From positions 1 through 61,077 of the forward strand of contig CAZHOB010000004.1 in NCBI GenBank assembly GCA_964534465.1: 61,077 bases of DNA, given 5' to 3'. This document shows, one piece after another, positions 12,512 to 30,562 of this stretch. This stretch comes from an uncultured Candidatus Saccharibacteria bacterium (GTDB lineage Bacteria > Patescibacteriota > Minisyncoccia > Phycocordibacterales > UBA2100). The first letter of the stretch is position 1. Each line of letters begins with the position of its first letter. Below the pieces are notes generated by a model. It saw nothing but the letters and a program-made list of their open reading frames with translations, was not told the origin of the DNA and made no database searches. Position numbers and translations under genes: made by a program.

Positions 12512-13426
12512 TTGGTATGCATTGGCTACAATGGCAGGGTGTATGCTTTTGATTATGGCTGGAACACCTCGGGCTCGACAGAGTCGTTTTTTTTGAAGTA
12601 TCGTCCGTGCACACGCACGCCCGGTTCGTGGAGGGAAGAAATAGATAAAGCCGCGCTTATGATCGCCAATAAAGCGCAAAAGCCTCTCTGGATATATTTT
12701 GCCGGCGGAATGGAAGGGGAGATACTCTGCAGTGCCTTTGAGCGTCTCGGCATACATTTCTCGGTGTTGCTGATAAAAAATCAGACGGATGCAAATCGTC
12801 GCAACGTGCTCTATGCGCAAAAGTGGTGCTATGACCATGGCATTGAGTGCAGGGTAGTGCCCGTCGACATCGTCAGCTTTTTTGAAAGCGATATCGAGCG
12901 TTATATAGGGGACTCTTTGATATCGCTCACACTGTACCGTTATTGGCAGATCAAAGTACTCGAGGTCATCGACGAGCTTGGCGGCTGTGCGGTGATGGCC
13001 GAGGGCAAGCAAATCTTCCAATTGAAACAGGCCGCTCCTGCGCACGAGGAAGATGTGGAGATCAATTTTGACGCGGGCATCGCAGCGCCGCTCGAGTGGT
13101 GCAGGCGGGCCGGCCAGTTCCATATACCGTATTTCTTTTCATCCACGCCTGAGCTCGTGCGCTCGTATCTCAACATACCCGTCATTGAAAGTGCTCTCCT
13201 GCACCCGGAGACGTTGGTCAGTAAACACAACAAGCATGCGATCATGCGCATCGCGATCCGCACATACTTTCCCGAATTGGAAACCCCTTATATGCCCAAT
13301 GCGTTCGGTCTTCGTGGAACTATGGGCGCGAAGAAACAAGCGCAGCTGCAGGAGCGATTCGCACATATTTCGCAACGCTTCAGGCTTTCAGTGCCCGCAC
13401 TCAAGCAGCAACTAAGTGGTCATTGA
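12512..13426 (+). CDS. PP-loop ATPase-like protein with a degenerate motif (paralogue of 22576..23457)
   Basis: Aligns to the paralogue (CTRTPGSWREE vs CTREPLPWREE). The PP-loop position reads FAGGMEGE instead of SSGGIDSE. Non-ATG (TTG) start as given in the ORF track, so the start is uncertain. Confidence 0.55.
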   Translation: MVCIGYNGRVYAFDYGWNTSGSTESFFLKYRPCTRTPGSWREEIDKAALMIANKAQKPLWIYFAGGMEGEILCSAFERLGIHFSVLLIKNQTDANRRNVLYAQKWCYDHGIECRVVPVDIVSFFESDIERYIGDSLISLTLYRYWQIKVLEVIDELGGCAVMAEGKQIFQLKQAAPAHEEDVEINFDAGIAAPLEWCRRAGQFHIPYFFSSTPELVRSYLNIPVIESALLHPETLVSKHNKHAIMRIAIRTYFPELETPYMPNAFGLRGTMGAKKQAQLQERFAHISQRFRLSVPALKQQLSGH

Positions 13427-14517
13427 TCTCCTGACTTTACGATAGCGATGTGTTCTTCTATCCCGCGTGCACAGACCGGCGTGAGGGTGGTGTCTTTCAG
13501 GCCAGCGCAAAATGCCCGCACGGCGGAGCTATCGCCCATCGCAGAAATGTACGTCATGCCGTAGATGCATGAATTTCGCTGGTAGGTTTCTGAAAAATGC
13601 TCACATACCGCCTCGGCGGCAGCAGGATTTGAAATGACGAGCGGTGCGTTATGAAACCCTATACCCTCAAAGCAATCCGTTTTGCCGGCGGCATCCCGCA
13701 CGCTCTCGCAGGCAGACTTTTGCTGCGCGAGCGTTTGCTCTTGCGAGGAACCTGCTTCCTCAAAGATGCGGTCTTGCAGCTTGGGCAAGAACGTAAAACA
13801 CGCGTGGAGTTCGTCACGGGGGGCCTTGTCGCACGGGTAGAGAACGTCACTGCGATCAAAAAGGCCCAGCGATGCCTCGCGATCGTACACATCGAACGCA
13901 TTTTCCATGTAGATACCACGAAAGCAGGCATTCGCTTGACTCCTGTCGTGTGCGATCTTCCGGCACAGTGCCGTAGAAGAGGCGATAGAGTTTAGTTCCT
14001 GGAACAGCACATGGCCGATGCCATGGCAGGTAACGATGTTCTGACACAGGCGGCCCCCGAGAGCGGTGATCTCGGGCATGCCCATGTGTGCGAGGTCCAC
14101 GTCAACGGTCGTCGTTCCAATCTGCTCTCGGAACGCCTCGCCGATCGCGCCGTGAGCGCACCCTTGCCCGCACACGTTGCCACAGAGTGCCATCGTATGT
14201 TCCAGATCCTTCTCACTGGAATAGAGCTGCGCACCCACCACGTGCGATATCAAATGGCACCGCAACGGGTCGACCGAGCTTTCAATGTATCCTTCGGCGT
14301 CGTGCGGGGCATAAGAAGCAAGAATGTTCTGTACCGCTTCCTGAATGCACGGCGAATCCTCGTATGTGGCGTGCGGACTATGCAAAGGGCACTGCGATAT
14401 GAGGCGCTGCACTTTTTGCGCAGGTGAGAGGGAGGGGCGAAACGCAAAAAAAACGAGCACCCCCAGCATGAGCACGCAGAGTGCCACTATCTTCCGGAGC
14501 CTCTGCGCGTGTCCCAT
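13420..14517 (-). CDS. Membrane-anchored Cys-pair/His-rich repeat protein, paralogue 1 of 3, function unknown
   Basis: N-terminal TM helix, then repeated C-x(6-12)-C-x-x-G units. Examples: RCHLISHVVG, CGQGCAHGAIGEAF, CHGIGHVLFQ, CFRGIYMENAF, CFEGIGFH, CIYGMTYI. Confidence 0.65.
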   Translation of the reverse strand: MGHAQRLRKIVALCVLMLGVLVFFAFRPSLSPAQKVQRLISQCPLHSPHATYEDSPCIQEAVQNILASYAPHDAEGYIESSVDPLRCHLISHVVGAQLYSSEKDLEHTMALCGNVCGQGCAHGAIGEAFREQIGTTTVDVDLAHMGMPEITALGGRLCQNIVTCHGIGHVLFQELNSIASSTALCRKIAHDRSQANACFRGIYMENAFDVYDREASLGLFDRSDVLYPCDKAPRDELHACFTFLPKLQDRIFEEAGSSQEQTLAQQKSACESVRDAAGKTDCFEGIGFHNAPLVISNPAAAEAVCEHFSETYQRNSCIYGMTYISAMGDSSAVRAFCAGLKDTTLTPVCARGIEEHIAIVKSGDQ

Positions 14518-14521
14518 AACC

Positions 14522-16189
14522 CTAGACGAGTTCGCGCGTCGAAAGATGCGTGAGTATACGTGCCGCGGCAGCTTCTGCCGAAGTCTCCGTCGTGTCTATA
14601 CGTATGTCGGGATCCTCGGGTGCCTCGTACGCATCATCAACGCCGGTAAAATCTTTGAGGTTGCCGCTGCGCGCCTTCTTGTAGAGACCCTTTGGATCAC
14701 GTTTTTCGCAGATGGACAGCGGTGTATCGATGAACACTTCGATATAGGTGCCGTTGGCAGCGATAAGCCGGCGATTTTTTGCGCGAGCGTGCGCGTAAGG
14801 GGCTATGGCGGCACACAGGGCAATACCTCCGTGTTTGGCTATTTCTCCGGCAACGAAACCGATGCGCTCTATATTGATATTGCGGTCTTCTTTGCTAAAA
14901 CCGAGCCCGCGCGAGAGGTTATTTCGCACGACGTCCCCGTCCAAAAGAGTAACGGAACGATGCGAGCACTCGAGCAGGGCATGGTAGAGCCTCAGAGCGA
15001 TGGTCGATTTGCCTGCGCCCGAATAGCCGGTAAAAAATACTACGGTGCCGCGCAGTTTTTCTTTTGCCATTGCGCGCCGGAGCTCTTCCACGACCTCGGG
15101 AAATGAGAACCACGCAGGTATTTCTTTTCCGGCGCGGAGCATTGCGCGGAACTGCGTCCCCGAAATACGGGAAGGCGTGCGATCCCCAAGCTCATCGAGG
15201 CACATGTACTTTTGCTCAGCCTCGACGTACACCAACTCCTCGGTGGGCAGTATCTTGATGCTGAGTGCGCGCTCGTGCTGCAGTGCCGCTGCTTGCGCAG
15301 CGTATGGTCCGTAAAATGGCGCACCATTTTTACCGGCCGCTCCCGCGTGGTCGCGTCCGACGATAAAATGTGTGGCGCCGTAATTTTTTCTGATCAGCGC
15401 ATGCCAGATGGCCTCACGGGGCCCTGCCATGCGCATCGCGATAGGGAGGAGTGCGAGCAATGCATGGTCTTTGAAATATGTCCCTGCGAGGCGTTTGTAA
15501 CTGCGCACGCGCGTTACGTAGTCGATGTCGCCTTCTTTGGTCGGTCCTGTGACCGGATGTACGAGGGCTTTTCCACCCACCTTTTTGAGAGCGCGCATGA
15601 TTATCTCGTAGTGCGCGCGATGGATGGGATTACGCGTTTGGAACGCGACAACGATATCCCACCCCCTCTTTTGAAATTCTTTTTTGAGCTCGTTCGGCCT
15701 GAACCTCAAGTCCTTGAAATCATGTGCGGGTGAATAGCGAATGAGTTCTACGGGCCCGCCAAGATACAAATTGCCGGTGTCCTCCATGAGATAGCGCACG
15801 CCGGGATGCTCAAGGCTTTCTGTGCCATACACAAGGCGCGCTTCACGCGATTTGTCCGGCTGGTAAATGCTCAAAATGGTAAAGAACGCTATCGGGTCGC
15901 CGTAGATGTCGCACAGTATGACTTTCTCATCGAGCATGGGAGCGGAAGCGCTCTGCGTGTCGAGTACGATAGGTATCGGGAAGAGCGTACCGTCGGAAAG
16001 TCGAGAGTGCAGGACGACGGAGTCGTAGTCTTTTTCATTCAGAAATCCGGACAATGGCGCAAATCCGCCGCACAGTATCTGCTCGAGATCGAGCCGTTGC
16101 CGCTCAGTCAGCGTAATGCGTCGCAGCTCCGGAAGCGGGGCGGTGCCTACGGAAAACGCGAGCGCGGAACGTTCCATACGTGGATTCAT
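14522..16189 (-). CDS. Bifunctional sulfate adenylyltransferase / adenylylsulfate kinase (PAPS synthase-type fusion)
   Basis: ATP-sulfurylase motifs QTRNPIHRAHYEI, HPVTGPTKEGDIDY and VGRDHAG. The C-terminal APS-kinase P-loop reads FFTGYSGAGKSTIA. Confidence 0.88.
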   Translation of the reverse strand: MNPRMERSALAFSVGTAPLPELRRITLTERQRLDLEQILCGGFAPLSGFLNEKDYDSVVLHSRLSDGTLFPIPIVLDTQSASAPMLDEKVILCDIYGDPIAFFTILSIYQPDKSREARLVYGTESLEHPGVRYLMEDTGNLYLGGPVELIRYSPAHDFKDLRFRPNELKKEFQKRGWDIVVAFQTRNPIHRAHYEIIMRALKKVGGKALVHPVTGPTKEGDIDYVTRVRSYKRLAGTYFKDHALLALLPIAMRMAGPREAIWHALIRKNYGATHFIVGRDHAGAAGKNGAPFYGPYAAQAAALQHERALSIKILPTEELVYVEAEQKYMCLDELGDRTPSRISGTQFRAMLRAGKEIPAWFSFPEVVEELRRAMAKEKLRGTVVFFTGYSGAGKSTIALRLYHALLECSHRSVTLLDGDVVRNNLSRGLGFSKEDRNINIERIGFVAGEIAKHGGIALCAAIAPYAHARAKNRRLIAANGTYIEVFIDTPLSICEKRDPKGLYKKARSGNLKDFTGVDDAYEAPEDPDIRIDTTETSAEAAAARILTHLSTRELV

Positions 16190-16195
16190 TCTATG

Positions 16196-17278
16196 CTACT
16201 GCGGGTTGTCTTCAAGTGCTTGGCCCATACTCGGATCCTCGCGGCGCGCGGCAGTGATGTTCGCGACATTTCGCTCGCACGCCGCCTGCAGATTGCCGAG
16301 GCCCCTGCAGGCACGTTTGGCAAATGAGAGCGGTCGAAAATAGCTGAAATGAGCGCCTGCCGTTATCTGACAATCAAATCGCGTCACGGGGTCGGTGGCA
16401 ATGGCGTCACATATTTTTACGGTCTTGTCAGGGTCATCGTTGGTCAAGAACTGAATGTTGGTCGCTATTCCGCGGACGCACCACCTATAGACTGATGCAT
16501 CGCCGGGCATTAGTTTGCACCACGCGCCCATTTTTTTTGCCATTGCGATGTCGTCGGCATTGTGGAAAACGAACATCCACCACATGGGCTGCCAATATAC
16601 GCACGCGGACCTGTCACCGATGTCTTTGATGCTCGCGCAAGGCTGGAGCGGATGTTTCGGATCACCTCGCATAGGAATGTAATCTCCCTCGCCCTGCATA
16701 AACCTCATCAAATACTCCATGAACAAGCCCCCCGAACAGCCTCTCACCTGATCCGTACTTGGTTTTAGTGATTTACATACGGCGAGCGCTTTCTGTACGT
16801 CCGCCGTGGTATATCCGATCGCATTCAGAATGCCGTGGCCGATGCCGTGCCGGCATTGGAAAGGTGTCACAGACTTGGAACACGCATCGCTCAAAAGTTG
16901 CACTGAATCTATACCGCCGCTCCGTATCGCCTGCGTCATGAACGCATGAAAACATCCGTACTCGAATCTGTCGTCGCATACGCGGACGCCGGAAATTCCC
17001 TCCACTTGGTACAATGCCTCCCCGAATATATGTGATTCAATGTGTTGTTGATTCGCGATCAGCGATCTGACGGACTTGGCGAATTCCTCGTAGGTGGCAC
17101 TACCGCCGACGTCTTTGATCCTGCTCTGCCAATGCATCAGTTTTTGCGCGTACGACATCCCTTTCAGGTCGACCACCGATCCCAGATGCGGATATATCGC
17201 GCCGGCATAGAGGCACACGGCGATCAATGCCATGGACAGCGCGATCAGTACGAGATGTTTTTTTAGGAATTCGCGCAT
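16196..17278 (-). CDS. Membrane-anchored Cys-pair/His-rich repeat protein, paralogue 2 of 3
   Basis: N-terminal TM helix. Motifs GCFHAFMTQ, CRHGIGHGILNAIG, CSGGLFMEYL, CVYWQPMWW, CVRGIATN. Stop lies 6 nt from the next start. Confidence 0.65.
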   Translation of the reverse strand: MREFLKKHLVLIALSMALIAVCLYAGAIYPHLGSVVDLKGMSYAQKLMHWQSRIKDVGGSATYEEFAKSVRSLIANQQHIESHIFGEALYQVEGISGVRVCDDRFEYGCFHAFMTQAIRSGGIDSVQLLSDACSKSVTPFQCRHGIGHGILNAIGYTTADVQKALAVCKSLKPSTDQVRGCSGGLFMEYLMRFMQGEGDYIPMRGDPKHPLQPCASIKDIGDRSACVYWQPMWWMFVFHNADDIAMAKKMGAWCKLMPGDASVYRWCVRGIATNIQFLTNDDPDKTVKICDAIATDPVTRFDCQITAGAHFSYFRPLSFAKRACRGLGNLQAACERNVANITAARREDPSMGQALEDNPQ

Positions 17279-17287: not shown

Positions 17288-18298
17288 TTAAGCTACAGCA
17301 ACGTCGTAAAAATCCCACTCCGTATTGTATTGATCATACGCAACGATCTCACCCTCGATATTCCCAAAGACGATGCGGGAGTGCTGGTCGTCCACCATGA
17401 TCCAGAGGCCGTCGACAAATTGGCAATCTTGCACCCAATCCGACGGTATCGTAATGGAGTTTTCCACGGTGAATGTATCGCCGCGCAAACGACCGCGATA
17501 CGAAATGCCTCTGCAGCTGTCGGCAAATGTAATGCGTCCGCCCTCGCTCCAGCGCGCGCCATGGGGGCGCTGAAGGCCTTCCACGATGGGCGTCACCTTT
17601 CCCGAACCCCGGTCGATCTTCGCGAGCATGTTTTGATGGAAAAAAGTAGCCAAGAGCGCATCATCTTCCGGCAATTCGATCGCAGTATTGACCTGCACCG
17701 TGCGAAGCCATGTGTCATAGTGCATCATCCGGTGGTCCTTCTTCTTATCCAAAACTCTCTTTCGCCCGAGTGCCCCTGTGGGGAAACCGTTCTCCGTCGC
17801 GAACCACGACCAGAGCACCTTTTTGCCGTCTTTCGACATCTCAAAAATTGAATCGGTGCCGGAGGAAACGACCATAAATCCGGCGGTGCTCTCGCGAACG
17901 GAATGAAGCTCATTGAACGCTTTGTGCGTGGCGAATATTTTCTCCGCGCTTAGATCCTTTGAAAAAGCGCCGACATCGTGATGCCGTGCACCAAGTATGG
18001 TCCCGTCGCTGCGTCGAATGATCCCGTAGATGAAATTGCAGCGCATGTAGCGTGATACCGTGGCATCTTTTTCGACCCGCACGATGAGACCTGCAGAAGG
18101 ATCATGGAGATCGGGCAGAGTGCATGTGGTGACTTTGGGATACGCGCGTTTTTTGCCCTTCTCGCTTTCCCAACGTGCCTTGCGCTCGCTCAAATTCTGA
18201 TACGAGACCGAAAGATAATACGCGGGGAGAGCGATCCGCTTACCCGTGAAGTGTCGTCGCAACTTCGCCATTTCAGCTGCCTCCGGTTGATGGTTCAT
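17288..18298 (-). CDS. Hypothetical protein with a weak arylsulfotransferase (ASST)-like beta-propeller signature
   Basis: HYDTWLRTVQVNTAIELPEDDALLATFFHQNMLAKIDRGSGKV resembles the ASST-family H-x-N ... S-x-x-x-Q ... KID-x-x-(S/T)-G-K block as I recall it. An ARHHDVG segment is also present. Assigned by eye only. Confidence 0.35.
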   Translation of the reverse strand: MNHQPEAAEMAKLRRHFTGKRIALPAYYLSVSYQNLSERKARWESEKGKKRAYPKVTTCTLPDLHDPSAGLIVRVEKDATVSRYMRCNFIYGIIRRSDGTILGARHHDVGAFSKDLSAEKIFATHKAFNELHSVRESTAGFMVVSSGTDSIFEMSKDGKKVLWSWFATENGFPTGALGRKRVLDKKKDHRMMHYDTWLRTVQVNTAIELPEDDALLATFFHQNMLAKIDRGSGKVTPIVEGLQRPHGARWSEGGRITFADSCRGISYRGRLRGDTFTVENSITIPSDWVQDCQFVDGLWIMVDDQHSRIVFGNIEGEIVAYDQYNTEWDFYDVAVA

Positions 18299-19581
18299 GA
18301 CGTTGTGGACTCGTCGCTAAGGACGAGCGTTTTTCCGCGTTTTGAATATCGCTCAATGTTGCTCACCGCTTCTACGGTAAGGGCGATCTTCGGGCCAACA
18401 AGCGGCATCAGAGTTTCTACAAGCTGCGATTCTGTGCGTTCATCGAAGCGTGCGCTTGGAACGATGCGCACGAGCATCCTATCTTCCGCTTTTTTCACGA
18501 TCTGATAGCGGTGCACGATATTCATGAATGGCTGAAGTTTGACATCGAATTCAAATTGGTGGAAGCGCCGGTCGCCAAATGAGAGCATTGAAGAATATCT
18601 CCCGTCGATCCATAGCCGCTGCGCATATAATCCGCACGTGCACTTCTCCCATGAGAGGCGGCCCCGATCACCGGTATCGTACCGCACGAAAGGCATTTGA
18701 TAATTGAAGACATCGGTAATAAGAACTTTGCCGTATGTTCCGTCGGAGAGTGGCATGCCATCCGTATCAACGACCTCGACGATGAACGACTCTACATTGA
18801 TGTGAAATCCGTCATGGGCGGAGCACTCCGAACCCACATTACCGAATTCTTCAAGTCCGTACCGATCGAACACCTCACAGTGAAGTATCCTTTCCACATG
18901 GGCCCGAGCCAACGGGGTCATTTTTTCTCCCATGGAGATAGCGTATTTGAAACGGAGCGGACTTTTAAAGCGCTCGACCGATCGTGCGACTTCGGGCAAG
19001 AGGGAAGCGACGGTTTCTATGGCATGCGGCTCGAATGCGACCATTTGATCGATAGCGGTCTTCGGGTCGCGCAAAAAATCATCGAAGCGAATGTAGAGCC
19101 GATTCGGTCTCTCCCGCGGTATCACCCGCAGCTGGACCATGCGCATCCACTCGGTATCGAACCGCCACGGCGTTCGTGCCAGCAAAAAACGAAAGTGGAG
19201 CGAATCGCGATAGTATTGGGCAGTCACGTGCGATTTGCGGAACGGAGAGAAGGGCGTGCCGCTCGAGCCGGATGTTGAGTCCCATTGACCCGACAGAAGT
19301 GTGCTGTTGTCCGTAAAATCCTCGTAATATCGTCCGAGGAACATCGTTTTATTCATGATAGGGAGCTTCGGCAGATCCGCGATATGCAGGATATGCGCAG
19401 TGTCCACGCGGTGTCTCGCGAGCAATTCTTTATAAAGCGGAATGTTGGTCGCGAGGTATGGCAGAACTTTTCGCAACTGCTTTTCCTGCCACGCGCGTAT
19501 CGTGCGCACGGATCTCTGGTGCACCATGTGAAAACGCAGGAATCGAAGGGTGTAACGCATCCGATAGTACAAAGCCCACAT
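18295..19581 (-). CDS. PaaK / coenzyme F390-synthetase / CapK-like adenylate-forming ligase, paralogue 1
   Basis: AMP-binding P-loop variant WDSTSGSSGTPFSPF. A Lys lies near the C-terminus (KRGKT). Overlaps the next gene by 4 nt. Confidence 0.7.
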   Translation of the reverse strand: MWALYYRMRYTLRFLRFHMVHQRSVRTIRAWQEKQLRKVLPYLATNIPLYKELLARHRVDTAHILHIADLPKLPIMNKTMFLGRYYEDFTDNSTLLSGQWDSTSGSSGTPFSPFRKSHVTAQYYRDSLHFRFLLARTPWRFDTEWMRMVQLRVIPRERPNRLYIRFDDFLRDPKTAIDQMVAFEPHAIETVASLLPEVARSVERFKSPLRFKYAISMGEKMTPLARAHVERILHCEVFDRYGLEEFGNVGSECSAHDGFHINVESFIVEVVDTDGMPLSDGTYGKVLITDVFNYQMPFVRYDTGDRGRLSWEKCTCGLYAQRLWIDGRYSSMLSFGDRRFHQFEFDVKLQPFMNIVHRYQIVKKAEDRMLVRIVPSARFDERTESQLVETLMPLVGPKIALTVEAVSNIERYSKRGKTLVLSDESTTS

Positions 19582-21280: not shown

Positions 21281-21346
21281 CGTCGCGAAGAGCAAAGGTG
21301 GTACCGAAAGGTGCCACCTTTTTATTGTGGGAGTATAATCCGCACC

Positions 21347-22528: not shown

Positions 22529-22575
22529 AACCCCCCTTTTTTTCATCAGAAGGGGAGCTGCTGTAGAATGCGCCT

Positions 22576-23457
22576 ATGAGCGCATTTTCCTTCGCGGGAG
22601 AAGGTAAGAGTTTCTCGGTCCGTTTCAATGCGTGCACGCGCGAACCTCTTCCATGGCGCGAGGAAGTGTACGCCGCCGCACGCGCAATTCATCTGAAAGC
22701 CAAAAAGCCGATATGGGTATGCTCTAGCGGCGGTATCGACAGCGAGGTCGCATGCCGCGCGTTTTATGACCAAGATATCCCGTTCTCGGTCCTTACGCTC
22801 GAACACAGGGAGGGCACGAATGCCCACGATATCAGATTCGCCGTGAAGTGGTGTGAGGAGCGCGGCGTATCCCAAAAAATAGTTCCGATAGACATGGAGA
22901 GGTTCCTTACCGAAGATATCGAGAAATACGCCGAGCGATACATTGCGATCCATCCATTCCGTTATTTTCAGCTCAAGCTTCTTGAGATCGTTGAAGAAAT
23001 GGGAGGCTTTGCCGTCCTTTGCAGCGGTGAGCAGATCTATCACTCCGATATGTCAAAAAAAGTGCTTACGCGCAGCGACATGGTCATCTCCGTATCCAAT
23101 GGCACGGCGATGCCACTTGCATGGTGTACCCAGCACAAAACAGAGCACGAGCCGTATTTTCATTTTGCGACGCCCGAGCTGTGCCTTTCGTATATCCGTC
23201 AGCCCTTGATATCTTTCGCGCTCGATAATCCGGAGTACGTGTTCCGTCATCCCGTGAACACCTATGCGCTCAAGCGCATGGCGTATCTCTCGGCGTGGCC
23301 CGACATGGAGGGACGTTTCAAATATCACGGATATGAACGCCTGAAGGAGGGACTGTTCCAGCATGCGTACGATACGTTGCACAAAAAATTCGCGGACCGG
23401 TTCGTTCGCGTCGATATTCCAGTCGACGAATTCGAGCGACAACTTCTCGGCGCATGA
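22576..23457 (+). CDS. PP-loop ATP pyrophosphatase superfamily protein (adenine nucleotide alpha-hydrolase; subfamily unresolved, PAPS-reductase-like is possible)
   Basis: Intact SGGxDS motif in IWVCSSGGIDSEVACRAF. The stop overlaps the next start (ATGA at 23454-23457). Confidence 0.7.
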   Translation: MSAFSFAGEGKSFSVRFNACTREPLPWREEVYAAARAIHLKAKKPIWVCSSGGIDSEVACRAFYDQDIPFSVLTLEHREGTNAHDIRFAVKWCEERGVSQKIVPIDMERFLTEDIEKYAERYIAIHPFRYFQLKLLEIVEEMGGFAVLCSGEQIYHSDMSKKVLTRSDMVISVSNGTAMPLAWCTQHKTEHEPYFHFATPELCLSYIRQPLISFALDNPEYVFRHPVNTYALKRMAYLSAWPDMEGRFKYHGYERLKEGLFQHAYDTLHKKFADRFVRVDIPVDEFERQLLGA

Positions 23458-24782
23458 TACAAGCGATCCTGGAGAAGAAGTGGTTGCGCGCGGACCGGAT
23501 ATGGACGCATCCGCTGGCATACAAGAGTTTTCTGCGGCTCATTCCGCTTTTTACCGACACGTGGGCACTCGTAAAAAGTCAGTATTGGTCACGCGAAGCA
23601 CTCGAGCGTATGCAGGATGTGCGATTGGGCGACCTCTTCAGGGAGGCGGATCATATTCCTCACTGGCATGAATTGCTGAGCCGTACACAGGGGACTCCGC
23701 GTGAAATACTCTCGCAGCTGCAGATCACGTCGAAGAGCGACCTCAATGAACGAGCTGTAGAGGAAATCGCCTTGACCGCGCTCTTTGCGATCTGTGATAC
23801 CGATCACACCTCGGGTTCTACGGGAAAACCGTTCCATTTTTATCAGGACCGGCATGATTCATTGCGAAGCTTCGCTGTCGTGGAGCGCATATTTCGCACG
23901 ATAACAGGCGGGAAGCGATACCCAATAGTCTACGTGCGCTCCAAGGAACGTTTCGGCTTTACCCCGTACATGCACGAGTGGTTTTATGTGCATGGGTATC
24001 CGCAGATACCATCAAGGATGGAGGACTTCGCGAAGTTGGCCGAGAAATATCCGGATGGATTCATATTGTACGGATATACGACGTGGGTCGTGGAGATCGT
24101 GCGGCAGATGGGGCTTCGAAAAATAGACATGCCGTTGCAGGCGGTGGTCGTGGCCGGAGAGCACCTCGCCGAGGGTGATAAAGAATTCATTGAGCAGGTA
24201 ACAGGCGCTCCGCTTTTCACGCTCTTTGCCTCGCGCGAAGCGGGATACATCGGATTCGAGTGCGAGCATCATGCGATGCATATCAGCGAAGAGTGGTGCC
24301 TCATGGAGGTCGTAGATACAGAGGGCAACGCGCTGCCCTTAGGAGCAGAAGGACGTATCGTCGTTACGACGTTCGATAACCTTGTCATGCCCTTCATACG
24401 ATATGACCTTGGTGATATCGGGAAGATCTCGCCACTACCGTGCACGTGCGGTAGAACACTGCGGACGTTCACCTACAAGGGCCGCATATCTGAGCGCATC
24501 GAACTTGGGGGCGGCAAAGTCGTCAGCCTTTTGGATATCGCATATTCACTCGGTCGGTACCGCGATGCGATCCGCCAGTACCAGATCGTTCAAAAGAGCA
24601 CGAGCGAATTTATTTTCAAAGTGATCCCCGGACCGCTGTTCGAAAAAAACAGAACGAACCTCGAAGAATTCATGCGCTCGCTGCTGGACCAAAGAGTGCA
24701 TATACTCTGGGAGGTGGTCGAACACATACCGGCGGGGAAGAGCGGTAAGGCTGTCTATTTCGTACGCGACCTCAAGCAGTAG
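23454..24782 (+). CDS. PaaK / F390-synthetase-like adenylate-forming ligase, paralogue 3
   Basis: DTDHTSGSTGKPFHFYQD. C-terminal PAGKSGKAVYFVRD. Confidence 0.72.
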   Translation: MIQAILEKKWLRADRIWTHPLAYKSFLRLIPLFTDTWALVKSQYWSREALERMQDVRLGDLFREADHIPHWHELLSRTQGTPREILSQLQITSKSDLNERAVEEIALTALFAICDTDHTSGSTGKPFHFYQDRHDSLRSFAVVERIFRTITGGKRYPIVYVRSKERFGFTPYMHEWFYVHGYPQIPSRMEDFAKLAEKYPDGFILYGYTTWVVEIVRQMGLRKIDMPLQAVVVAGEHLAEGDKEFIEQVTGAPLFTLFASREAGYIGFECEHHAMHISEEWCLMEVVDTEGNALPLGAEGRIVVTTFDNLVMPFIRYDLGDIGKISPLPCTCGRTLRTFTYKGRISERIELGGGKVVSLLDIAYSLGRYRDAIRQYQIVQKSTSEFIFKVIPGPLFEKNRTNLEEFMRSLLDQRVHILWEVVEHIPAGKSGKAVYFVRDLKQ

Positions 24783-26422
24783 ATCTCACCCGCGTTCGTC
24801 GGCACGAAGAGAAGGTCGCTCTTCACGGCGATGGCGTTCACGATGCGTTCGGTGGTTTGAAAAAAACGCTTGAGTTTGCCGGAGCGCGGATCTATTTCAT
24901 GCAGTTTGCCGTCATTGGACCCAAGCCATAGAGAATTATTCCAGAAGACCGGCGATGCAAAGACGCGACCGCCTGTCTCATACGTCCACAGGTCCTTCCA
25001 GTTCGTGCAATCAATGGCGTACAAACATTTGTCGAGGGAGGCGATGAAGAGCGTGTCATTATGCACCAGCGGTATTGAGTATATGCCGCTACCCGTTTCG
25101 CGGGCATGGAGCGGCATGCCGCCCTGTGCGCCGAGAGCATATAAGCGTCCATCCATAGAAGCGAAAACGACGGCGCGACGTTTCGCATCGTAGGCGGCGC
25201 GGGTCTTAATATCGCCGCGCGAAGCGAATTTCCATTGCAATTCACCGCTCTTCGCATCGTAGGCATAGAGCACGCCGTCGTTACTTCCGATCACGACGAG
25301 TCCCTCTTCCTTTATATAGAGAGGGGAGCCATGAGTGAGGGAGGGATGCGAGGCATGCCACGTGAGGTGTCCCGATCTAAGGTCGAGCGCGGCGATGCCA
25401 CCGTGCTTGCGCCATAGTCCATACTCGAGTCCTATATAGATGAGCCCAAGATCCGGCGCGATGTCGGGTGAAGAGCCGACCCAGTCGGCGTCCGCATAAC
25501 TCCAGATCTTCTTTCCTGTTTTCGCCTCGAGCGCGTACACCGTGCCATCGTATGCGCCAAAATATACAAGCTCTCCATGGAGCGCGGGCGAGGAGAGAAT
25601 ACTTTTTCCGGTCGGATGTTTCCCGATCCTGAATTCCCATGCGACTTCGCCGCTCGTAAGAGAGAGCGCGCGGAACGCTCCATCGTCGCAGCCAAAGTAT
25701 ATGCGTTCCTCATCGAGCACCGGCGCAGATTTTTGTACCACCAGATCGTAGAGAGGTGCGGGTGCGCTGTATTTCCACAGCACTTCGAAATCATCCTTGG
25801 GAATTTCCGGTGTATGGGAGCGCTGGAGCGGTAATCCAAAATCGGAAATGGAAAAAAGATGCGTGAGGCGCACGTTTTTTTCCGTTAGAAATGCATACGC
25901 TTCATTCTCGCGGAACGTGAGGATCACAAAAGCGTCGGTAACTTTTTTTCCCGCGGCGTGCAGGATGTCGACCTGCTTGTTGATGCTCTGTCCCGAATTC
26001 ATCAAGTCGTCGACAAAGATGACGGGCTCATCGGTGAGCGTGCCCTCGATCTGTTTCATGAGCCCTGTGCGTTTGCGCGATTTTCGCAGGTAAAAACCAT
26101 TCACCGGAGTGCCACGCTCCTGACCTTTCATCACAATGGCGGCGAGCAGAGCGATGCCGGCCGTCTCCACGCTTCCCACTTGGAATGGATAGTGCTGGTG
26201 GTAGTGCTGCCAAAAGAGCTCAGCGTACCTATTGAGCCACGCGGACTGAAGCATGAGTGCCCTAAAATCAAATATCCACGGGTCGCGGGCGCCTGTCGAT
26301 CCGCCCGCGACGATGTCGACGCCTGCCCGCGCCCTGACCAATACGACGCTTGCAATGGCGCTGCGGAATTCCTGTAAAGGAGCGCTACCGATGGCTCTCG
26401 CCACGTTGGCTTTTGTATTCAT
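24755..26422 (-). CDS. Fusion protein: type-I phosphoribosyltransferase domain plus PQQ-like beta-propeller repeats
   Basis: PRPP-binding loop EPVIFVDDLMNSGQS. At least five propeller blades follow: GAYDGTVYALEAKTGKKIWSY, SNDGVLYAYDAKSGELQWKF, SMDGRLYALG, SLDKCLYAIDCTNWKDLWTY, SNDGKLHEIDPRSGKL. Confidence 0.7.
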   Translation of the reverse strand: MNTKANVARAIGSAPLQEFRSAIASVVLVRARAGVDIVAGGSTGARDPWIFDFRALMLQSAWLNRYAELFWQHYHQHYPFQVGSVETAGIALLAAIVMKGQERGTPVNGFYLRKSRKRTGLMKQIEGTLTDEPVIFVDDLMNSGQSINKQVDILHAAGKKVTDAFVILTFRENEAYAFLTEKNVRLTHLFSISDFGLPLQRSHTPEIPKDDFEVLWKYSAPAPLYDLVVQKSAPVLDEERIYFGCDDGAFRALSLTSGEVAWEFRIGKHPTGKSILSSPALHGELVYFGAYDGTVYALEAKTGKKIWSYADADWVGSSPDIAPDLGLIYIGLEYGLWRKHGGIAALDLRSGHLTWHASHPSLTHGSPLYIKEEGLVVIGSNDGVLYAYDAKSGELQWKFASRGDIKTRAAYDAKRRAVVFASMDGRLYALGAQGGMPLHARETGSGIYSIPLVHNDTLFIASLDKCLYAIDCTNWKDLWTYETGGRVFASPVFWNNSLWLGSNDGKLHEIDPRSGKLKRFFQTTERIVNAIAVKSDLLFVPTNAGEIYCLRSRTK

Positions 26423-26585
26423 ACCAGAGCTTCACGAGCATGGTTGCTGCCGTGACGCACCACACAATAAACCAAAAATAGCTGAAGGCATAGATGTGAT
26501 GGTCGATATATTGTTGCACAGGCGAAAGTTGCGTCGGTTTGTTGCCCGCCAGTTCTTTCAGTACGATCAATTTTTGGTCTTCCAT
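26385..26585 (-). CDS. 66-aa single-TM protein, coupled to the upstream membrane protein
   Basis: The ATG lies 1 nt after the TGA of 26587..27978. Reads MEDQKLIVLKELAGNKPTQLSPVQQYIDHHIYAFSYFWFIVWCVTAATMLVKLWYEYKSQRGESHR. It overlaps the 5' end of 24755..26422 by 38 nt. Confidence 0.45.
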   Translation of the reverse strand: MEDQKLIVLKELAGNKPTQLSPVQQYIDHHIYAFSYFWFIVWCVTAATMLVKLWYEYKSQRGESHR

Positions 26586-26586: not shown

Positions 26587-27978
26587 TCAATAATGATAGA
26601 CATTTTGCGCGGGATAGCCGATGATCGGTGCATTCGGGGGAAGTCGTATCCACTCGTTATGTCTGAACGGCTGATAATCGACGTTGCAGATATCAGGCAC
26701 GTCGACGATCCGATAGAAAGGACCCCCGTTGATCGAATGATCAAACGTCATTGAAATGGTCGGCATCGCGCTGGAGCACGTCTCATGTAGCTGAGCCCAC
26801 CATTCGTACGGGTCGCACCGGTTCCACGCGGTACCCGATTCATAACGGAGCACCTGCTGCGACGTGCCCTTGCCGAGCGTCGTTGTTTTTTGCAGGACGA
26901 GACAATAGAAACTATTGCATTTTGTGCCGGCCAGTTTTTCAAAATCGCCGCTCGCGCTCCTCTCAAAAAGGTACTGCTTGGTAACGGTTGCGATGCATTG
27001 GTGATTGGCCTCGAACATGAACATGCCGAAGCGGTTGCCTTCGAGCGTGAGATATCTGTCGGTCGGTATGATGAATCCGAGCAACTGAAAGAGGAGGATA
27101 AGGGCGATAATGCACCACCCCGCGATGGACTTTTTATCAAATGGCGGCCGCTGGTAGCGATACATCGGCCCGAACAAAATGGCGATCGGCGGAAGCGCTA
27201 TCGACGGATAATCATAGAAGACGAAAATGCCGGAGTAGAGATGGAAATAGAGAGCGAATACAAGAGACATCCGCTGCAAAAGCCAATTACGCGAGAGCAG
27301 GAACCACGCTTCGACTATTTGTACGAAAATAACGATGTTGGTCGAAATGGGAATGAACCAGTCGGGAAAAAGAGGTATGCCGGTCTTCATGGAAGAGAAA
27401 TACGTCCCCTCTATCCATGCGGGAGAAAGCTTGACCGTGACAGACACGAAATAGAGAAGGACAAAAACGAGCTTGAGGAAGTACTCCTTGTGCGGGATAA
27501 AAAGGAGCGTCGCCGTGAGGAAGATGTGATAGTAATCATACGGTCCCGCAATAATATAACTGAGGACAAAAATGACGAAGATCTTCCACACAAGGAGCAA
27601 TGCGAGCAGCATGTGCGCATAGGCCCATTGTTTTTTCCACATGAAATATACGATCAGCATCATGAGACCAAAGAGCAGCATGTAGAACTCCGATTGCGTG
27701 AAGCCGTCGGGAAGCACATGGAAAAAATAGAGATCGCCGCAATTCTTGAAATATGGCCAGCACACCGCCGCGCCGCGCCGCGCCGTTTCCACGGTAATAA
27801 GTGTTTTTCCTATCCATACGGAGAAGGTCACGTAGAAGTAAAAGAGCATTGCCCCGAACATCCACTGCAAAATGACCTGCGACTCGATCTCCTCAATGCT
27901 GAAAAGTTTTCTGTATGCTTCCGTGAACGAACGCCAGTAGTTTTTTATTTTCGTACCGACTTCGGACATCATTTGCAT
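26587..27978 (-). CDS. Polytopic membrane protein (~8-10 TM) with a Cys-containing C-terminal soluble domain (HTTM/SdpB-like?)
   Basis: Hydrophobic repeats run through residues ~30-300, and the C-terminal ~150 aa carry 6 Cys. Overlaps the SagB gene by 10 nt. The family assignment is a guess. Confidence 0.6.
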   Translation of the reverse strand: MQMMSEVGTKIKNYWRSFTEAYRKLFSIEEIESQVILQWMFGAMLFYFYVTFSVWIGKTLITVETARRGAAVCWPYFKNCGDLYFFHVLPDGFTQSEFYMLLFGLMMLIVYFMWKKQWAYAHMLLALLLVWKIFVIFVLSYIIAGPYDYYHIFLTATLLFIPHKEYFLKLVFVLLYFVSVTVKLSPAWIEGTYFSSMKTGIPLFPDWFIPISTNIVIFVQIVEAWFLLSRNWLLQRMSLVFALYFHLYSGIFVFYDYPSIALPPIAILFGPMYRYQRPPFDKKSIAGWCIIALILLFQLLGFIIPTDRYLTLEGNRFGMFMFEANHQCIATVTKQYLFERSASGDFEKLAGTKCNSFYCLVLQKTTTLGKGTSQQVLRYESGTAWNRCDPYEWWAQLHETCSSAMPTISMTFDHSINGGPFYRIVDVPDICNVDYQPFRHNEWIRLPPNAPIIGYPAQNVYHY

Positions 27979-28679
27979 ACCGTTATTGTATGAACAGTCT
28001 GTTCCTGTTCCTCGTTTAAATCAAGGAGTTGCGCAACGAGAGCATCATTGAAGCCCGCGTACGGCCGCACCTTGAGCGAGAGTACGCACCCCACGAGCAA
28101 AATATTCTCGCTCATGTGACCCGCCTCGAGGAGGGCATGCAGGTACGCAAGATCGCCGTATTTGGCCGACGAGCGTTGCCATACGCTCGTGAACACAATA
28201 ATGGATGACAGCGGAAGTTCTTCGGGGTGTTTTGCGATGTCTTTCATGGTGATATCGCGCGGAAGGTCCCAGAGCCGCTCGAGCGCATGCTTACTGGGGT
28301 TGTAGTGGTAGGCCGCCGGCGTCTGACCCTCGATCGCGGTCGATATCAGGTAAGTTTCCACAGGATAGAGAGCTCCACCCGAGGGGTAGTTCCTCCGATG
28401 AGAGTCGGGATGTTTTCGAAGCGAGAGACCGAGAAGTGTACCGAGTTCTTGGAGAAGCAGGGGTGTGTCAGGATTTCCTTCGAGCGCCGAATGCCTTTGC
28501 ACGAGAGCGTCTTGCAATCTGGTCGCGAGTTGCTCGGGCTCTGGAAGAGAGATCTGTCCCATGCGCTTGTATGCTTTGTGTGTTCCCCGTGGCACCTCTT
28601 CAGGTCGATGCGTCGCCCCGCGACGCGTCAGTCGCGCTCTGCGAAGTTCCGCATGTATATGTGAGAGAAAAGGATTCAT
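27969..28679 (-). CDS. SagB-type (nitroreductase-fold, FMN) dehydrogenase
   Basis: Hallmark RNYPSGGALYPVETYL. C-terminal LLEAGHMSENILL ... RPYAGFND. The start overlaps the YcaO stop (ATGA at 28676-28679). Confidence 0.82.
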   Translation of the reverse strand: MNPFLSHIHAELRRARLTRRGATHRPEEVPRGTHKAYKRMGQISLPEPEQLATRLQDALVQRHSALEGNPDTPLLLQELGTLLGLSLRKHPDSHRRNYPSGGALYPVETYLISTAIEGQTPAAYHYNPSKHALERLWDLPRDITMKDIAKHPEELPLSSIIVFTSVWQRSSAKYGDLAYLHALLEAGHMSENILLVGCVLSLKVRPYAGFNDALVAQLLDLNEEQEQTVHTITVCK

Positions 28680-30190
28680 GAGAAAGGATGAGGGGTCGCG
28701 ACGTGCGGTTCCTTGAGGGGCTGATAGCCGAATGCAAGCGGTACTTCTTTGAGCCGTGTGCCGCCAAAGAGACGCAACTGCTCAATTAGATAGGGGGGGT
28801 GGAGCTGCGGTATCACGACCATTTCTATGTGCCACGGCGTTACGTTCTTTTTAGAACCCGAGAGGGATACGGAGATGCAATCGTACGATCTATCCGAGCA
28901 CCATTTCAGGACGCGCTCCAACTGTTGTTCTATGGTATCTCCATCCCACGGTTTCTCTGATACCCCTATTTCTTTTCCCTCCAGTAGTGAGCGCAATTTT
29001 TCGGCATTTTCAGGTTTGCCCCAATAGTATAGTCTGTCGCGATGCCCGATCTCTTCTACGGGCGTGTCATTCCATGAATTTCCCGCATCTTCCCACACAC
29101 GATACCCGCGGCGGGCTCGAAGAGCCTCCGTCAGAGCCTTTTGGACGGCATAGTTAATTGAACGATGTGCTTTGAGACCGATGGTAAAGAGTGGCGCATG
29201 CCCGCTCGTATCTTCAAGGATGACGGCAACTGCATGGGTCGGCGCGTCGGTAATGAGCTGGATCACATGAGGACGAAGTCGATATTGTGTGCACAGTGCT
29301 ACCGCGCGCGCGAGAGCGTCGTCTTCTGTACAGAGGGGGACAAGGGAAATTCGCGGCAGCTTCAATTGATTGAGCCACCAGACCATGTAGGCCTCACGCT
29401 CGATCACTTCGAGGGCGCCGGCAAGGCGCGCACCGGAAAGCGTCGGCCATGTAGCGAGACCGATGGTGGTTTGCTGACGTATCTGCGGCTCGTCGTATCC
29501 GTACTTTTGGTTGAGGCGGACACCGATAGCGGTTTGCGCGGGAATATACACGTCGACGTCGCTCGTGAGTGATCTCCCCTGTATCCATAGATATCGGGCG
29601 TCCTCGCGGAGCGTGCGCTTCGGATTCTGCGCGCGCTGTTCTTCGGAAAAACCGACGAAGTCGCGCGGCGAGATGTATGGACCGTATTTTGCTATTTCAT
29701 TTTCAGTAACACGCTGCGGTCGCATAAAATAATCCTCTTGCGAAAACCATAAGAACCGCTCAACTCCTTCGGCAAGCGTGGCCAAGAGCGCGTCCTCATC
29801 AGAGTGCCATGTGGTGCCGCCTACCTGGTGTTTGGAGGGAACGTTGCACAGCGCATACCAAGATCTGGTCGGCGGCTCATCCTCCATCGATGCCGACCGG
29901 CCATATTGCGTGAGCACGCCCGCTTCCTTGAGGCGTTCGGCAAGCGCGAGAGGGTCCGCAAGGTCGGGCCGCTCAAAAGGCACCGCTCGTGTGTCCCTAT
30001 AAAAATGACCATTTGTTTTCTGCTCGAGCATACCGATGAGCGCACGGAGTGCTCTGTTCTTGATGTCGTCACCCTGCAAAGCATCGTACAAAGGATAGCC
30101 ATCCACGATCATGGTCGCATGATAGCAGCGCAGTTCCGACAGGGTAGTTGTCAAAACTGTCGGGGAAGGTTGTAAAAGTTTTCCCAGCAT
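28676..30190 (-). CDS. YcaO-domain ATP-dependent (cyclo)dehydratase
   Basis: LATLAEGVERFLW, TTIGLATWPTLSGARLAGALEVIEREAYMVWW, IGHRDRLYYW, and the typical Pro-rich C-terminal tail ...HVATPHPFS. Confidence 0.85.
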   Translation of the reverse strand: MLGKLLQPSPTVLTTTLSELRCYHATMIVDGYPLYDALQGDDIKNRALRALIGMLEQKTNGHFYRDTRAVPFERPDLADPLALAERLKEAGVLTQYGRSASMEDEPPTRSWYALCNVPSKHQVGGTTWHSDEDALLATLAEGVERFLWFSQEDYFMRPQRVTENEIAKYGPYISPRDFVGFSEEQRAQNPKRTLREDARYLWIQGRSLTSDVDVYIPAQTAIGVRLNQKYGYDEPQIRQQTTIGLATWPTLSGARLAGALEVIEREAYMVWWLNQLKLPRISLVPLCTEDDALARAVALCTQYRLRPHVIQLITDAPTHAVAVILEDTSGHAPLFTIGLKAHRSINYAVQKALTEALRARRGYRVWEDAGNSWNDTPVEEIGHRDRLYYWGKPENAEKLRSLLEGKEIGVSEKPWDGDTIEQQLERVLKWCSDRSYDCISVSLSGSKKNVTPWHIEMVVIPQLHPPYLIEQLRLFGGTRLKEVPLAFGYQPLKEPHVATPHPFS

Positions 30191-30232
30191 TATCCCCAGA
30201 GCGATTGATCAAAAGGACTTCAATGGACTACT

Positions 30233-30562
30233 ATGTACTCTATGCAGAATAAAAAGAGGGGTTCCGGTATTTGGTCACGGATCGGCGGCACGCTTCTTAT
30301 TGCGCTCGGATTTTTTCTCGTGCTGTTCTCTACTTCGACCCGCACGTTCAAGAATTTCGGCGCACACGATGACGGTAATATCGCGCACGCGGACGCGCCG
30401 GCGGGAAGCGCTGCCGGCTCTACGAGCAGTGGAGGTGATAGCGTGAGCAGCGGTGATTCCGGCGGGGGTCAAGGCAGCTCCGACAGCGGCTCTGACAGCG
30501 GGGGATGTGGAGACAGCGGCGGCGACAGCGGCGGCGGTGATAGTGGAAGCGGCGGCAAATAA
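30233..30562 (+). CDS. Membrane-anchored Gly/Ser/Asp-rich small protein, candidate YcaO substrate
   Basis: Lies 42 nt divergent from ycaO. N-terminal TM helix (IGGTLLIALGFFLVLF). The C-terminus reads GSAAGSTSSGGDSVSSGDSGGGQGSSDSGSDSGGCGDSGGDSGGGDSGSGGK. Confidence 0.55.
   Translation: MYSMQNKKRGSGIWSRIGGTLLIALGFFLVLFSTSTRTFKNFGAHDDGNIAHADAPAGSAAGSTSSGGDSVSSGDSGGGQGSSDSGSDSGGCGDSGGDSGGGDSGSGGK

Follow-up and report, generated by a model that had tools for sequence, protein, structure and literature searches.

A probable TOMM/LAP-type peptide maturation locus between rpsJ and rplC in the S10 operon of a member of the Patescibacteria

The rpsJ-rplC interval and its YcaO-SagB core

We analyzed 61,077 nucleotides from an uncultured Candidatus Saccharibacteria bacterium (assembly GCA_964534465.1, contig CAZHOB010000004.1, positions 1 to 61,077 of the forward strand; hereafter the window), which carry a dense array of genes for a YcaO enzyme, a SagB-type dehydrogenase, and many accessory and surface proteins between rpsJ and rplC, two genes for ribosomal proteins. 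Using Pfam, the borders of the array were set at rpsJ on the left (S10, 135 aa; 11349-11756, plus strand; PF00338 7e-30) and at rplC on the right (L3; 37742-38380, plus strand), the latter being followed by rplD, rplW, and rplB (families of this run: PF00297, PF00573, and PF00181/PF03947). A first-pass annotation made from the sequence alone had placed an ~18 kb cluster between these two markers; its position was correct, whereas the gap between rpsJ and rplC is in fact ~26 kb, with a coding share of 95% for 11757-37741. By listing and translation of open reading frames (ORFs), 17 tightly packed ORFs were obtained in 12512-30562, forming four groups, i.e. two minus-strand units, one plus-strand group, and the flanking ORFs at 12512 and 30233. 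The gene map, strands, and overlapping or tight junctions given earlier were thereby reproduced. Further interval genes beyond that earlier list encode two small exported peptides, p368, a TPR protein, a PA14/PKD protein, and a 151-aa ORF.

The first minus-strand unit (20926 to 13420) comprises lig447, lig428, prop336, Cys2, Sat-CysC, and Cys1 in this order with internal gaps of 1-9 nt. The plus-strand group (21044 to 24782) consists of a 78-aa exported peptide, Cys3, PPl, and lig442, and the second minus-strand unit (30190 to 24755) of YcaO, SagB, memb463, tm66, and PRT_PQQ. Inspection of the DNA confirmed ATGA overlaps at 23454, 28676, and 18295 and an overlap of 10 nt at 27969-27978; for prop336 an alternative start at 18271 is possible, with which the overlap at 18295-18298 would vanish.

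YcaO (28676-30190, minus strand), an amide-activating enzyme and probable cyclodehydratase, matched PF02624 with 2e-41, and an alignment of homologues places its probable start at Met27 (30112). In this alignment the ExxER motifs do not vary, and in a profile search of the PDB the family matched TruD, LynD, and MusD best. Azoline-forming YcaOs carry a Pro-rich PxPxP C-terminus; here, the C-terminus PHPF[AS], which holds two of the three prolines of PxPxP, is invariant in nine of nine sequences. An exact look-up of the window YcaO gave no match. The FMN-dependent dehydrogenase SagB (27969-28679, minus strand) shares a 4-nt overlap with YcaO and exceeded the cut-off of its model (TIGR03605, 107 bits vs. 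78.4), and its motifs RxYPSGG and Lys173-Tyr174 are kept in 25-27 of 27 homologues. TfuA was not found in the interval. From these sequence features we infer that YcaO and SagB would install azoles on the tail of a peptide.

Divergent from YcaO lies a small gene (30233-30562, plus strand), the product of which has a basic N-terminus, a transmembrane (TM)-like helix at residues 17-35 (Kyte-Doolittle 19-residue mean 2.0), a linker, the junction IAHADAP, and a Gly/Ser/Asp-rich core of 56 aa with 18 Ser/Thr and a single Cys. A small ORF of equal build was found divergent from YcaO first in six and, after extension, in ~35 related loci. Within this family the helix has a Kyte-Doolittle 19-residue mean of 1.7-2.45, the linker comprises 15-25 residues, and the junction reads (V/I)A[HY]A[DE](A/V)P, followed by a hypervariable Cys/Gly/Ser/Asp-rich tail of 25-75 residues, for which CGGDCGGDCGGDCGGK and CGCGCGCGI are examples. 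Nearly all cores contain Cys (1-14 residues), and most are Cys-rich with the contexts CG, GC, and DC. Since a conserved leader in front of a hypervariable Cys/Ser-rich core beside YcaO-SagB is a hallmark of thiazole/oxazole-modified microcins and linear azol(in)e-containing peptides (TOMM/LAP), 30233-30562, listed in the first-pass annotation as a mere Gly/Ser/Asp-rich flank, is a probable precursor peptide and, as judged from its sequence, most likely the substrate of YcaO-SagB.

Recurrence in Patescibacteria and position in the S10 operon

Related loci were defined by a YcaO at least 35% identical to that of the window, and 61 distinct loci (numbered with the prefix L) were collected. Single-protein contig scans with PPl and prop336 gave nothing, and alignment-based scans were needed. 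All relatives found for the YcaO locus belong to metagenome-assembled genomes (MAGs) of Patescibacteria (Paceibacteria/Parcubacteria, Nomura-, Kaiser-, and Adlerbacteria, and Minisyncoccia). The minimal conserved set consists of YcaO-SagB and a divergent operon of precursor, p368, TPR protein, and PA14-like protein; frequent additions right after SagB are PRT_PQQ (18 ORFs) as well as memb463 and tm66 (12 and 7 ORFs).

The most complete agreement was seen in L007/L037 with 11 consecutive genes in window order and identities of 40-73% (Cys3-PPl-lig442, PRT_PQQ-tm66-memb463-SagB-YcaO, and precursor-p368-TPR-PA14-like). The trio Cys3-PPl-lig442 is also present in L014, there accompanied by lig428. 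In L010, a one-strand operon with short gaps reads YcaO-SagB-ligase-ligase-propeller-Sat, and lig428 homologues follow directly after YcaO-SagB there as well as in L058, L062, and L063 (YcaO-SagB-ligase-ligase). Moreover, lig428-prop336-Cys2-Sat occur in window order in L034 and lig447-lig428-prop336 in L036, while Cys proteins and Sat-CysC adjoin the YcaO unit of L013. Co-occurrence of the neighborhood in other genomes was therefore borne out, in many cases with the gene order kept or within one operon, and the notion of a chance juxtaposition with homologues that never co-occur elsewhere fails because they do. The cluster is a recurrent, modular functional neighborhood. As a side aspect, two YcaO-SagB-precursor units, in tandem or ~20 kb apart, were observed in L013, L015, L026, L032, and in L005 together with L065; the two precursors of L015 are distinct.

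The rpsJ-rplC junction is normally among the most invariant gene junctions in bacteria. Nevertheless, at least one of rpsJ and rplC lies within 10 kb in 24 of the 61 loci, and both genes were seen in seven loci (L005, L017, L018, L022, L038, L042, and L058). When at least 8 kb were available on the respective side, 13 of 25 loci had rplC on the side of the precursor and 14 of 27 had rpsJ on that of the YcaO operon. L011 reads rpsG-fusA-tuf-...-rpsJ, at once followed by PPl and the YcaO unit. The orientation is constant, with the precursor/surface operon codirectional with rplC and the enzyme operon antisense. Six fully covered related loci are located elsewhere in the genome, and some genomes have two copies.

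GC content is uniform across the interval (0.51-0.56), neither a tRNA nor an Rfam family was detected in scans of the whole window, and no integrase or transposase domain was found among the interval proteins scanned with Pfam and NCBIfam. Together with the position kept in other genomes, these results led us to reject a recent mobile island. The earlier picture of a cluster wedged into the operon has to be revised accordingly: because the rpsJ-rplC position is common to many Patescibacteria MAGs, the composition is uniform, and no tRNA is present, the arrangement is inherited and not a genome-specific insertion.

Accessory enzymes, exported proteins, and flanking features

The family calls made earlier from motifs held for Sat-CysC, YcaO, SagB, the PRTase-PQQ fusion, the PaaK-like ligases, and the PP-loop protein when examined by profile and structure comparison, and were weakly supported for the propeller called ASST-like (arylsulfate sulfotransferase). 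Sat-CysC (14522-16189, minus strand), a bifunctional ATP sulfurylase/adenosine-5'-phosphosulfate (APS) kinase, surpassed the cut-offs of NF004040 (700 vs. 669 bits), TIGR00339 (402 vs. 323), and TIGR00455 (199 vs. 139), contains PF01747 (3e-78), PF01583 (2e-59), and PUA_2, and is by this domain content predicted to make 3'-phosphoadenosine-5'-phosphosulfate (PAPS). The adenylate-forming ligases lig447 (19583-20926, minus strand), lig428 (18295-19581, minus strand), and lig442 (23454-24782, plus strand), the last one translationally coupled to PPl to judge by the ATGA overlap, match PaaK, CapK, F390-synthetase, and DVU1553-type models with E-values between 1e-35 and 1e-8, none of which reaches the equivalog cut-offs; for lig428 the sub-threshold NCBIfam matches were DVU1553_fam (1e-35), FlxY, and PaaK. 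In the PDB, PaaK 4r1l was matched with 1e-19 (lig447), followed by AjiA1 and 6siw. The ligases carry the P-loop motif TSGS(T/S)G (TSGSSGTPF in lig428), and by BLASTP lig442 and lig447 share 41% identity (1e-117), while lig428 is ~26% identical to both (1e-32).

For prop336 (17288-18298, minus strand), a cytoplasmic protein, a beta-propeller was modeled with confidence by AlphaFold (pLDDT 89). In Foldseek, ASST 3ets ranked first (E 2e-10, TMq 0.65), with Cpz4 (9kf6/9kf4) close behind; 1428 propellers were found at E<=1e-3, and the ASST scores are barely above those of hundreds of unrelated propellers. The ASST families PF05935/PF14269 gave no match at E<=10 in six prop336 members and none in ten distant or fused relatives, and a profile search of the PDB with the prop336 family returned no ASST chain. 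Structural support for the ASST call is thus weak and non-discriminating and support from sequence profiles is absent, but the genomic linkage to sulfate activation is real: five of six contexts of close propeller homologues contain Sat or APS kinase, which makes a good guilt-by-association argument for use of APS/PAPS. His and Arg residues are invariant in the family at H123, H180-R181, H212, and H237. We regard prop336 as a candidate APS/PAPS-dependent transferase and its assignment as a sulfotransferase as tentative, with somewhat less than an even chance.

The most distant of the close propeller homologues (L035, 560-3624; 31% identity) stands directly after an APS kinase and a 532-aa pyridoxal phosphate-dependent decarboxylase (Pyridoxal_deC), an arrangement that recalls sulfonate metabolism of the cysteate/taurine type. 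With six matches, the propeller had at one point appeared to be a very rare family, which was refuted by 617 representative clusters in an exhaustive HMMER search. The fusion partners of distant relatives (HAD hydrolase, NHL-like repeats) gave no functional clue. One distant relative, P0110 from a marine metagenome (L105, 2774-11139), neighbors an MccF-like S66 peptidase, an APH-type kinase, a ParA/CbiA-like P-loop protein, NUDIX, and JmjC/cupin proteins, and further a truncated class II aminoacyl-tRNA synthetase paralogue (AspRS), an Orn/Arg decarboxylase, a methyltransferase, and an ABC-2 exporter; the surroundings resemble a nucleotide-peptide antibiotic cluster.

PPl (22576-23457, plus strand) represents an unnamed family of 83 homologues, a few of which carry precomputed PF00733, PF06508, or PF01171 annotations. 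Its model, based on a 40-sequence alignment, reached a pLDDT of 95 and was best matched in Foldseek by beta-lactam synthetase, AsnB, LarE, TtuA, and NAD synthetase (probability 1.0, TM-scores 0.3-0.44). On the strength of the model, the predicted PP-loop ATP pyrophosphatase fold stands. The motif SSGGIDSE is present, its positions S51, G52, G53, D55, and S56 being at least 90% conserved in the family (alignment A3); a CxxC Fe-S motif is absent, and two Cys residues, C20 and C93, are conserved. The ORF at 12512-13426 (plus strand) is indeed the degenerate paralogue recognized earlier, sharing 34% identity with PPl (2e-59, BLASTP) and having lost the motif (SGGxDS to AGGMEGE). Neither protein matched Pfam or NCBIfam at threshold. 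PPl homologues without YcaO occur in L009 (Terriglobales) and L012. The homologue in L009 (8573-9514, 43% identity) is located beside rhodanese genes and a molybdopterin oxidoreductase operon, a context that possibly hints at sulfur chemistry for the PPl family.

PRT_PQQ (24755-26422, minus strand) combines a type I phosphoribosyltransferase (PRTase) domain resembling orotate PRTase with a PQQ/BamB-type propeller (PF13570 7e-53, PF13360 9e-34). The N-terminal domain matched the pyrE model TIGR00336 with 6.5e-16 and 58.6 bits against a cut-off of 106.8, and being below this cut-off the protein is not an orotate PRTase equivalog. Its loop for phosphoribosyl pyrophosphate (PRPP), VIFVDDLMNSG (D138, D139, N142, G144), and the RKSRK loop R113-K117 are at least 95% conserved in 17 homologues, and the propeller, of PQQ/ACSF4 type, scored above the curated cut-off.

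The polytopic membrane protein memb463 (26587-27978, minus strand), which has a Cys-containing C-terminal domain, shows many invariant residues (alignment A5) and no credible Pfam, NCBIfam, or PDB match. It lies between SagB and PRT_PQQ in 12 loci and is a candidate exporter or processing factor. The 66-aa single-pass membrane protein tm66 (26385-26585, minus strand) has homologues with 38-53% identity in seven loci, at the same position and always with memb463. Cys1 (13420-14517, minus strand), Cys2 (16196-17278, minus strand), and Cys3 (21311-22528, plus strand) belong to one family with an N-terminal membrane anchor (alignment A6; Cys1 vs. Cys3 30% identity, 8e-47, BLASTP). The family has the invariant motifs HxxxH, CxH, CHGxGH, and CxxGxxME besides paired-Cys repeats. 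Profile searches gave no credible match in Pfam, NCBIfam, or the PDB; a search with the family profile returned only eight unnamed proteins, and homologues are confined to Patescibacteria loci. The motifs suggest exported metal-binding proteins, which probably act outside the cell, e.g. as metal-dependent processing enzymes.

Downstream of the precursor gene, the plus strand encodes p368 (30565-31671), a TM-anchored, probably all-helical protein, a TM-anchored TPR protein (31689-32474; TPR_19 7e-11; 27 related ORFs), and a large surface protein of 1474 aa with three PA14 and PKD domains (32487-36911; PA14 8e-57). For p368, 16 homologues (alignment A7), always 3' of the precursor gene, show no conserved catalytic residues, and Pfam, NCBIfam, and PDB searches gave no credible match. 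The surface-protein family combines an N-terminal TM segment and the membrane-proximal motif E(L/V)xFTDxSxxGLxIVPASCPS with an Ig-like domain that is conserved at the C-terminus; in the window protein, this core is enlarged by the PA14 and PKD domains, the homologues elsewhere being short, and the middle parts of the PA14-like proteins of the window and of L003-L024 range from ~100 to ~1200 residues. The window gene contains an 81-nt tandem duplication at 35625-35777, and directly after its stop a 34-nt inverted repeat (36925-36958/37009-37042; 88% complementary, 50-nt spacer) was noticed. A 151-aa exported or membrane protein (37132-37587, plus strand) without Pfam match follows. A promoter-like sequence, TTGCAT-16-TATACT, is located ~120 nt upstream of rplC (about 37600) and a hairpin at 37740-37763 overlaps the rplC start; read-through from the PA14 side into rplC is possible.

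Three small exported peptides are encoded on the plus strand at 11871-12107, 12265-12468, and 21044-21280 (78, 67, and 78 aa), each with 2-5 Cys; the second has a signal-peptide-like N-terminus and 2 Cys. A strong terminator-like hairpin (12116-12139; 10-bp stem, T7 run) stands behind the first. The third has its own transcription unit, with a promoter-like sequence at 20965-20993 matching 11 of 12 consensus positions and a terminator-like structure with a 12-bp stem at 21294-21321. Weak similarity was found between the first and a small ORF in L015 and between the third and an ORF in L014 (37%, 3e-5), while no homologue was found for 12265-12468; in L022, a similar small exported Cys-pair ORF (18649-18891) lies beside rpsJ.

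Two further observations concern the S10 operon itself. S10 has a Lys/Ala/Pro-rich N-terminal extension of ~35 aa, and the S10 proteins called in relatives likewise exceed the usual length (115-170 aa). The operon is interrupted once more (40181-43531) between rplB (39338-40180) and rpsS/rplV/rpsC, and this stretch contains a 605-aa ABC half-transporter (40874-42691, plus strand), minus-strand ORFs at 40229-40831 and 42827-43216, and a bidirectional hairpin with a 13-bp stem at 42779-42807; the half-transporter might be an exporter connected with the peptide system.

Interpretation and comparison with known systems

On balance, we consider it probable that the window carries the local form of a TOMM/LAP-type system for peptide maturation that is conserved in a lineage of Patescibacteria (Paceibacteria/Parcubacteria), the product of which is most likely an exported, heavily modified small peptide with azole rings and possibly sulfate. 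The substrate would be the product of 30233-30562, in which the N-terminal part, i.e. the basic residues, the TM-like helix, the ~20-aa linker, and AHAD(A/V)P, would serve as leader and for membrane targeting. While the peptide is still cytoplasmic, YcaO would cyclodehydrate Cys/Ser of the tail at the expense of ATP and SagB would oxidize the resulting azolines to azoles. The hydrophobic leader may then direct the modified peptide to the membrane, where memb463 and tm66, perhaps along with the exported Cys/His proteins, are candidates for the machinery of insertion or export and of a possible cleavage at AHA|D. The peptide would remain on the cell surface in the company of p368 and the TPR and PA14-like proteins, which are TM-anchored and co-transcribed. 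As for the accessory modules, lig447-lig428-prop336-(Cys2)-Sat-CysC could provide carboxylate adenylation and PAPS-dependent sulfation with the propeller as likely transferase, so that acyl or sulfate groups would be added, and Cys3-PPl-lig442 could combine PP-loop adenylation with a ligase for a further modification of unspecified kind. PRT_PQQ presumably uses PRPP; its propeller may hold the peptide and may replace the missing E1-like leader-binding partner.

Of the features of TOMM/LAP systems, the YcaO, the SagB-type dehydrogenase, and the adjacent precursor with a Cys/Ser-rich core were found, whereas an E1-like partner or a RiPP recognition element (RRE; RiPP, ribosomally made and post-translationally modified peptide) was not, and this is one of several points that weigh against the reading. 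In Pfam/NCBIfam scans of the interval proteins, which left the N-terminal ~75-100 aa of YcaO unassigned, neither an E1-like/Ocin-ThiF-like partner nor an RRE appeared; partner-independent YcaOs exist, as in bottromycin biosynthesis. The TOMM SagD model TIGR03604 scored YcaO with 161 bits, below the cut-off of 219, and the same scans revealed no recognizable peptidase in the locus. Regarding the precursor, a TM-like leader is unusual among RiPPs, with the single Cys of the window core most azoles would need to originate from Ser, and a canonical signal peptidase I site at AHA|D is doubtful with a distance of 15-25 residues to the hydrophobic helix. Sat, propeller, and ligases are missing from most related loci and may serve another pathway that just often lies nearby; no clear pattern linked core composition (Ser- vs. 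Cys-rich) to their presence, and the distant propeller relative in L105 has an unrelated, nucleotide-antibiotic-like context.

Among the alternatives, a patchwork of unrelated neighbors without a common product, i.e. a LAP module, an envelope or sulfation pathway (CapK-like ligases, PAPS, propeller, Cys proteins), and surface genes, survives best, although we regard it as unlikely. That the genes stay in the rpsJ-rplC interval across genomes with YcaOs only 38-58% identical is difficult to reconcile with it, as are the ligases, propeller, and Sat following YcaO-SagB on one strand with short gaps in L010, the ligase pair directly after SagB in L058, L062, and L063, and the Cys3-PPl-lig442 trio, which in the window, L007/L037, and L014 abuts the YcaO unit. 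In its favor are the presence of accessory genes in only a minority of related loci, the four transcription units with convergent ends, the PPl homologues without YcaO in L009 and L012, and the different context of the distant propeller homologue.

Less probable still is another chemistry of YcaO on the small protein (thioamide, amidine, or phosphorylation), to which the PP-loop protein or PAPS-derived sulfur would contribute, with the nitroreductase-fold protein in another redox role. The missing E1-like partner, the sub-threshold SagD model, the Cys-poor window core, the resemblance of the PPl fold to the sulfur-inserting LarE and TtuA as well as to AsnB, and the PPl homologue among rhodanese genes in L009 would agree with such a chemistry; azole formation is favored by the SagB model above its cut-off with the catalytic Lys-Tyr kept, heterocyclases as the closest solved YcaOs, and Cys-rich cores in most of the family with the CG, GC, and DC contexts typical of azole peptides, and moreover no TfuA was found and PPl is missing from most loci. 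Finally, a modification of a ribosomal protein or another translation component by YcaO/SagB and perhaps other enzymes, to which the conserved rpsJ-rplC position and the link of the E. coli YcaO to ribosomal protein modification (reportedly S12 methylthiolation or uL16 thioamidation) could point, is very improbable given the dedicated small ORF with hypervariable Cys/Ser-rich tail always accompanying YcaO, the SagB partner and the TruD/LynD affinity that point to azoles on a dedicated peptide, the six fully covered loci away from rpsJ/rplC, and the membrane and surface proteins as co-transcribed partners.

Starting again from a TOMM/LAP-type maturation system, a bolder version can be formulated, which we consider somewhat unlikely: a near-housekeeping system held by a large Patescibacteria clade in its S10 operon, and not an accessory antibiotic cluster, would build a membrane-bound or exported low-complexity peptide for the cell surface or host attachment, decorated with azoles, sulfate, and perhaps phosphoribosyl groups, with the participation of YcaO/SagB as RiPP-type enzymes, a new PRPP-dependent propeller enzyme, PaaK-like ligases, cytoplasmic propeller sulfotransferases of a new family, co-transcribed TPR/PA14-like proteins, and exported Cys/His-rich metalloproteins. 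To our knowledge, almost no secondary metabolism has been recognized in the candidate phyla radiation (CPR)/Patescibacteria with their tiny genomes. The retention, in a large clade, of 10-26 kb of genes for peptide modification and surface proteins in the rpsJ-rplC gap points to strong selection and to constitutive expression, and the locus might account for the way in which these episymbionts construct or decorate their surface, or attack or attach to the host. It also places several enzyme families without assigned function in a testable context, namely the PRTase-propeller, the sulfate-linked propeller, the stand-alone PP-loop protein, the Cys/His-rich proteins, and the polytopic membrane protein, and the membrane-type leader of the precursor sets the family apart among RiPPs.

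Individual enzymes have relatives in known pathways. ASST of E. coli (3ets/3elq) and Cpz4 of caprazamycin biosynthesis, which acts in a PAPS-fed pathway, share the propeller fold with prop336 and are among its best Foldseek matches, and prop336 homologues are located beside sulfate-activation genes; unlike ASST, prop336 has ~330 aa instead of >450 aa, no signal peptide, and no ASST Pfam match. PaaK, AjiA1, BagE/FevW, CapK, and F390 synthetase share with the ligases the ANL-superfamily fold and the TSGSTG P-loop, whereas the matches of the window ligases are far below the equivalog cut-offs and three paralogues occur in a peptide-maturation context. AsnB, beta-lactam synthetase, and lasso-cyclase as well as LarE and TtuA share the SGGxDS motif and the fold of PP-loop ATP pyrophosphatases with PPl, which in contrast consists only of a ~290-aa synthetase-like domain without CxxC Fe-S motif and has a motif-less paralogue in the locus.

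In the CPR, 110 LAP clusters were reported in 93 genomes, 51 of them Parcubacteria, with YcaO, a nitroreductase, and an adjacent ~84-aa Ser/Cys-rich putative precursor (Sharrar et al. 2020, mBio, PMC7298704). These clusters and the present locus very probably represent the same or a sister family, and the composition called unprecedented in the first-pass annotation has a core of TOMM/LAP type that was already known to be widespread in the CPR. Only YcaO, nitroreductase, and a peptidase are described there, while the rpsJ-rplC position, the leader build, PRT_PQQ, the ligases, the PP-loop protein, Sat-CysC, and the surface operon are not mentioned in the passages considered. Calling the pathway unrecognizable was hence overstated; its full combination appears undescribed in the searchable literature, in which no description of this rpsJ-rplC arrangement or locus was found. 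With the TOMM/LAP systems of microcin B17, plantazolicin, klebsazolicin, and phazolicin, the window shares a YcaO cyclodehydratase-type enzyme beside a SagB/McbC-type FMN dehydrogenase and, as for microcin B17, an adjacent small gene with a Gly/Ser/Cys-rich C-terminal part, the hypervariable core standing behind a conserved leader. It differs from them in the absence of an E1-like/Ocin-ThiF partner and in a leader composed of a TM-like helix and AHAD(A/V)P. Furthermore, the unit is without recognizable leader peptidase or ABC exporter and is embedded in the S10 operon, its constant partners comprise TM-anchored helical, TPR, and PA14-like surface proteins along with a PRTase-propeller fusion and a polytopic membrane protein of a novel type, and in contrast to the described TOMM/LAP systems the window has a module of sulfate activation, propeller, and ligases.

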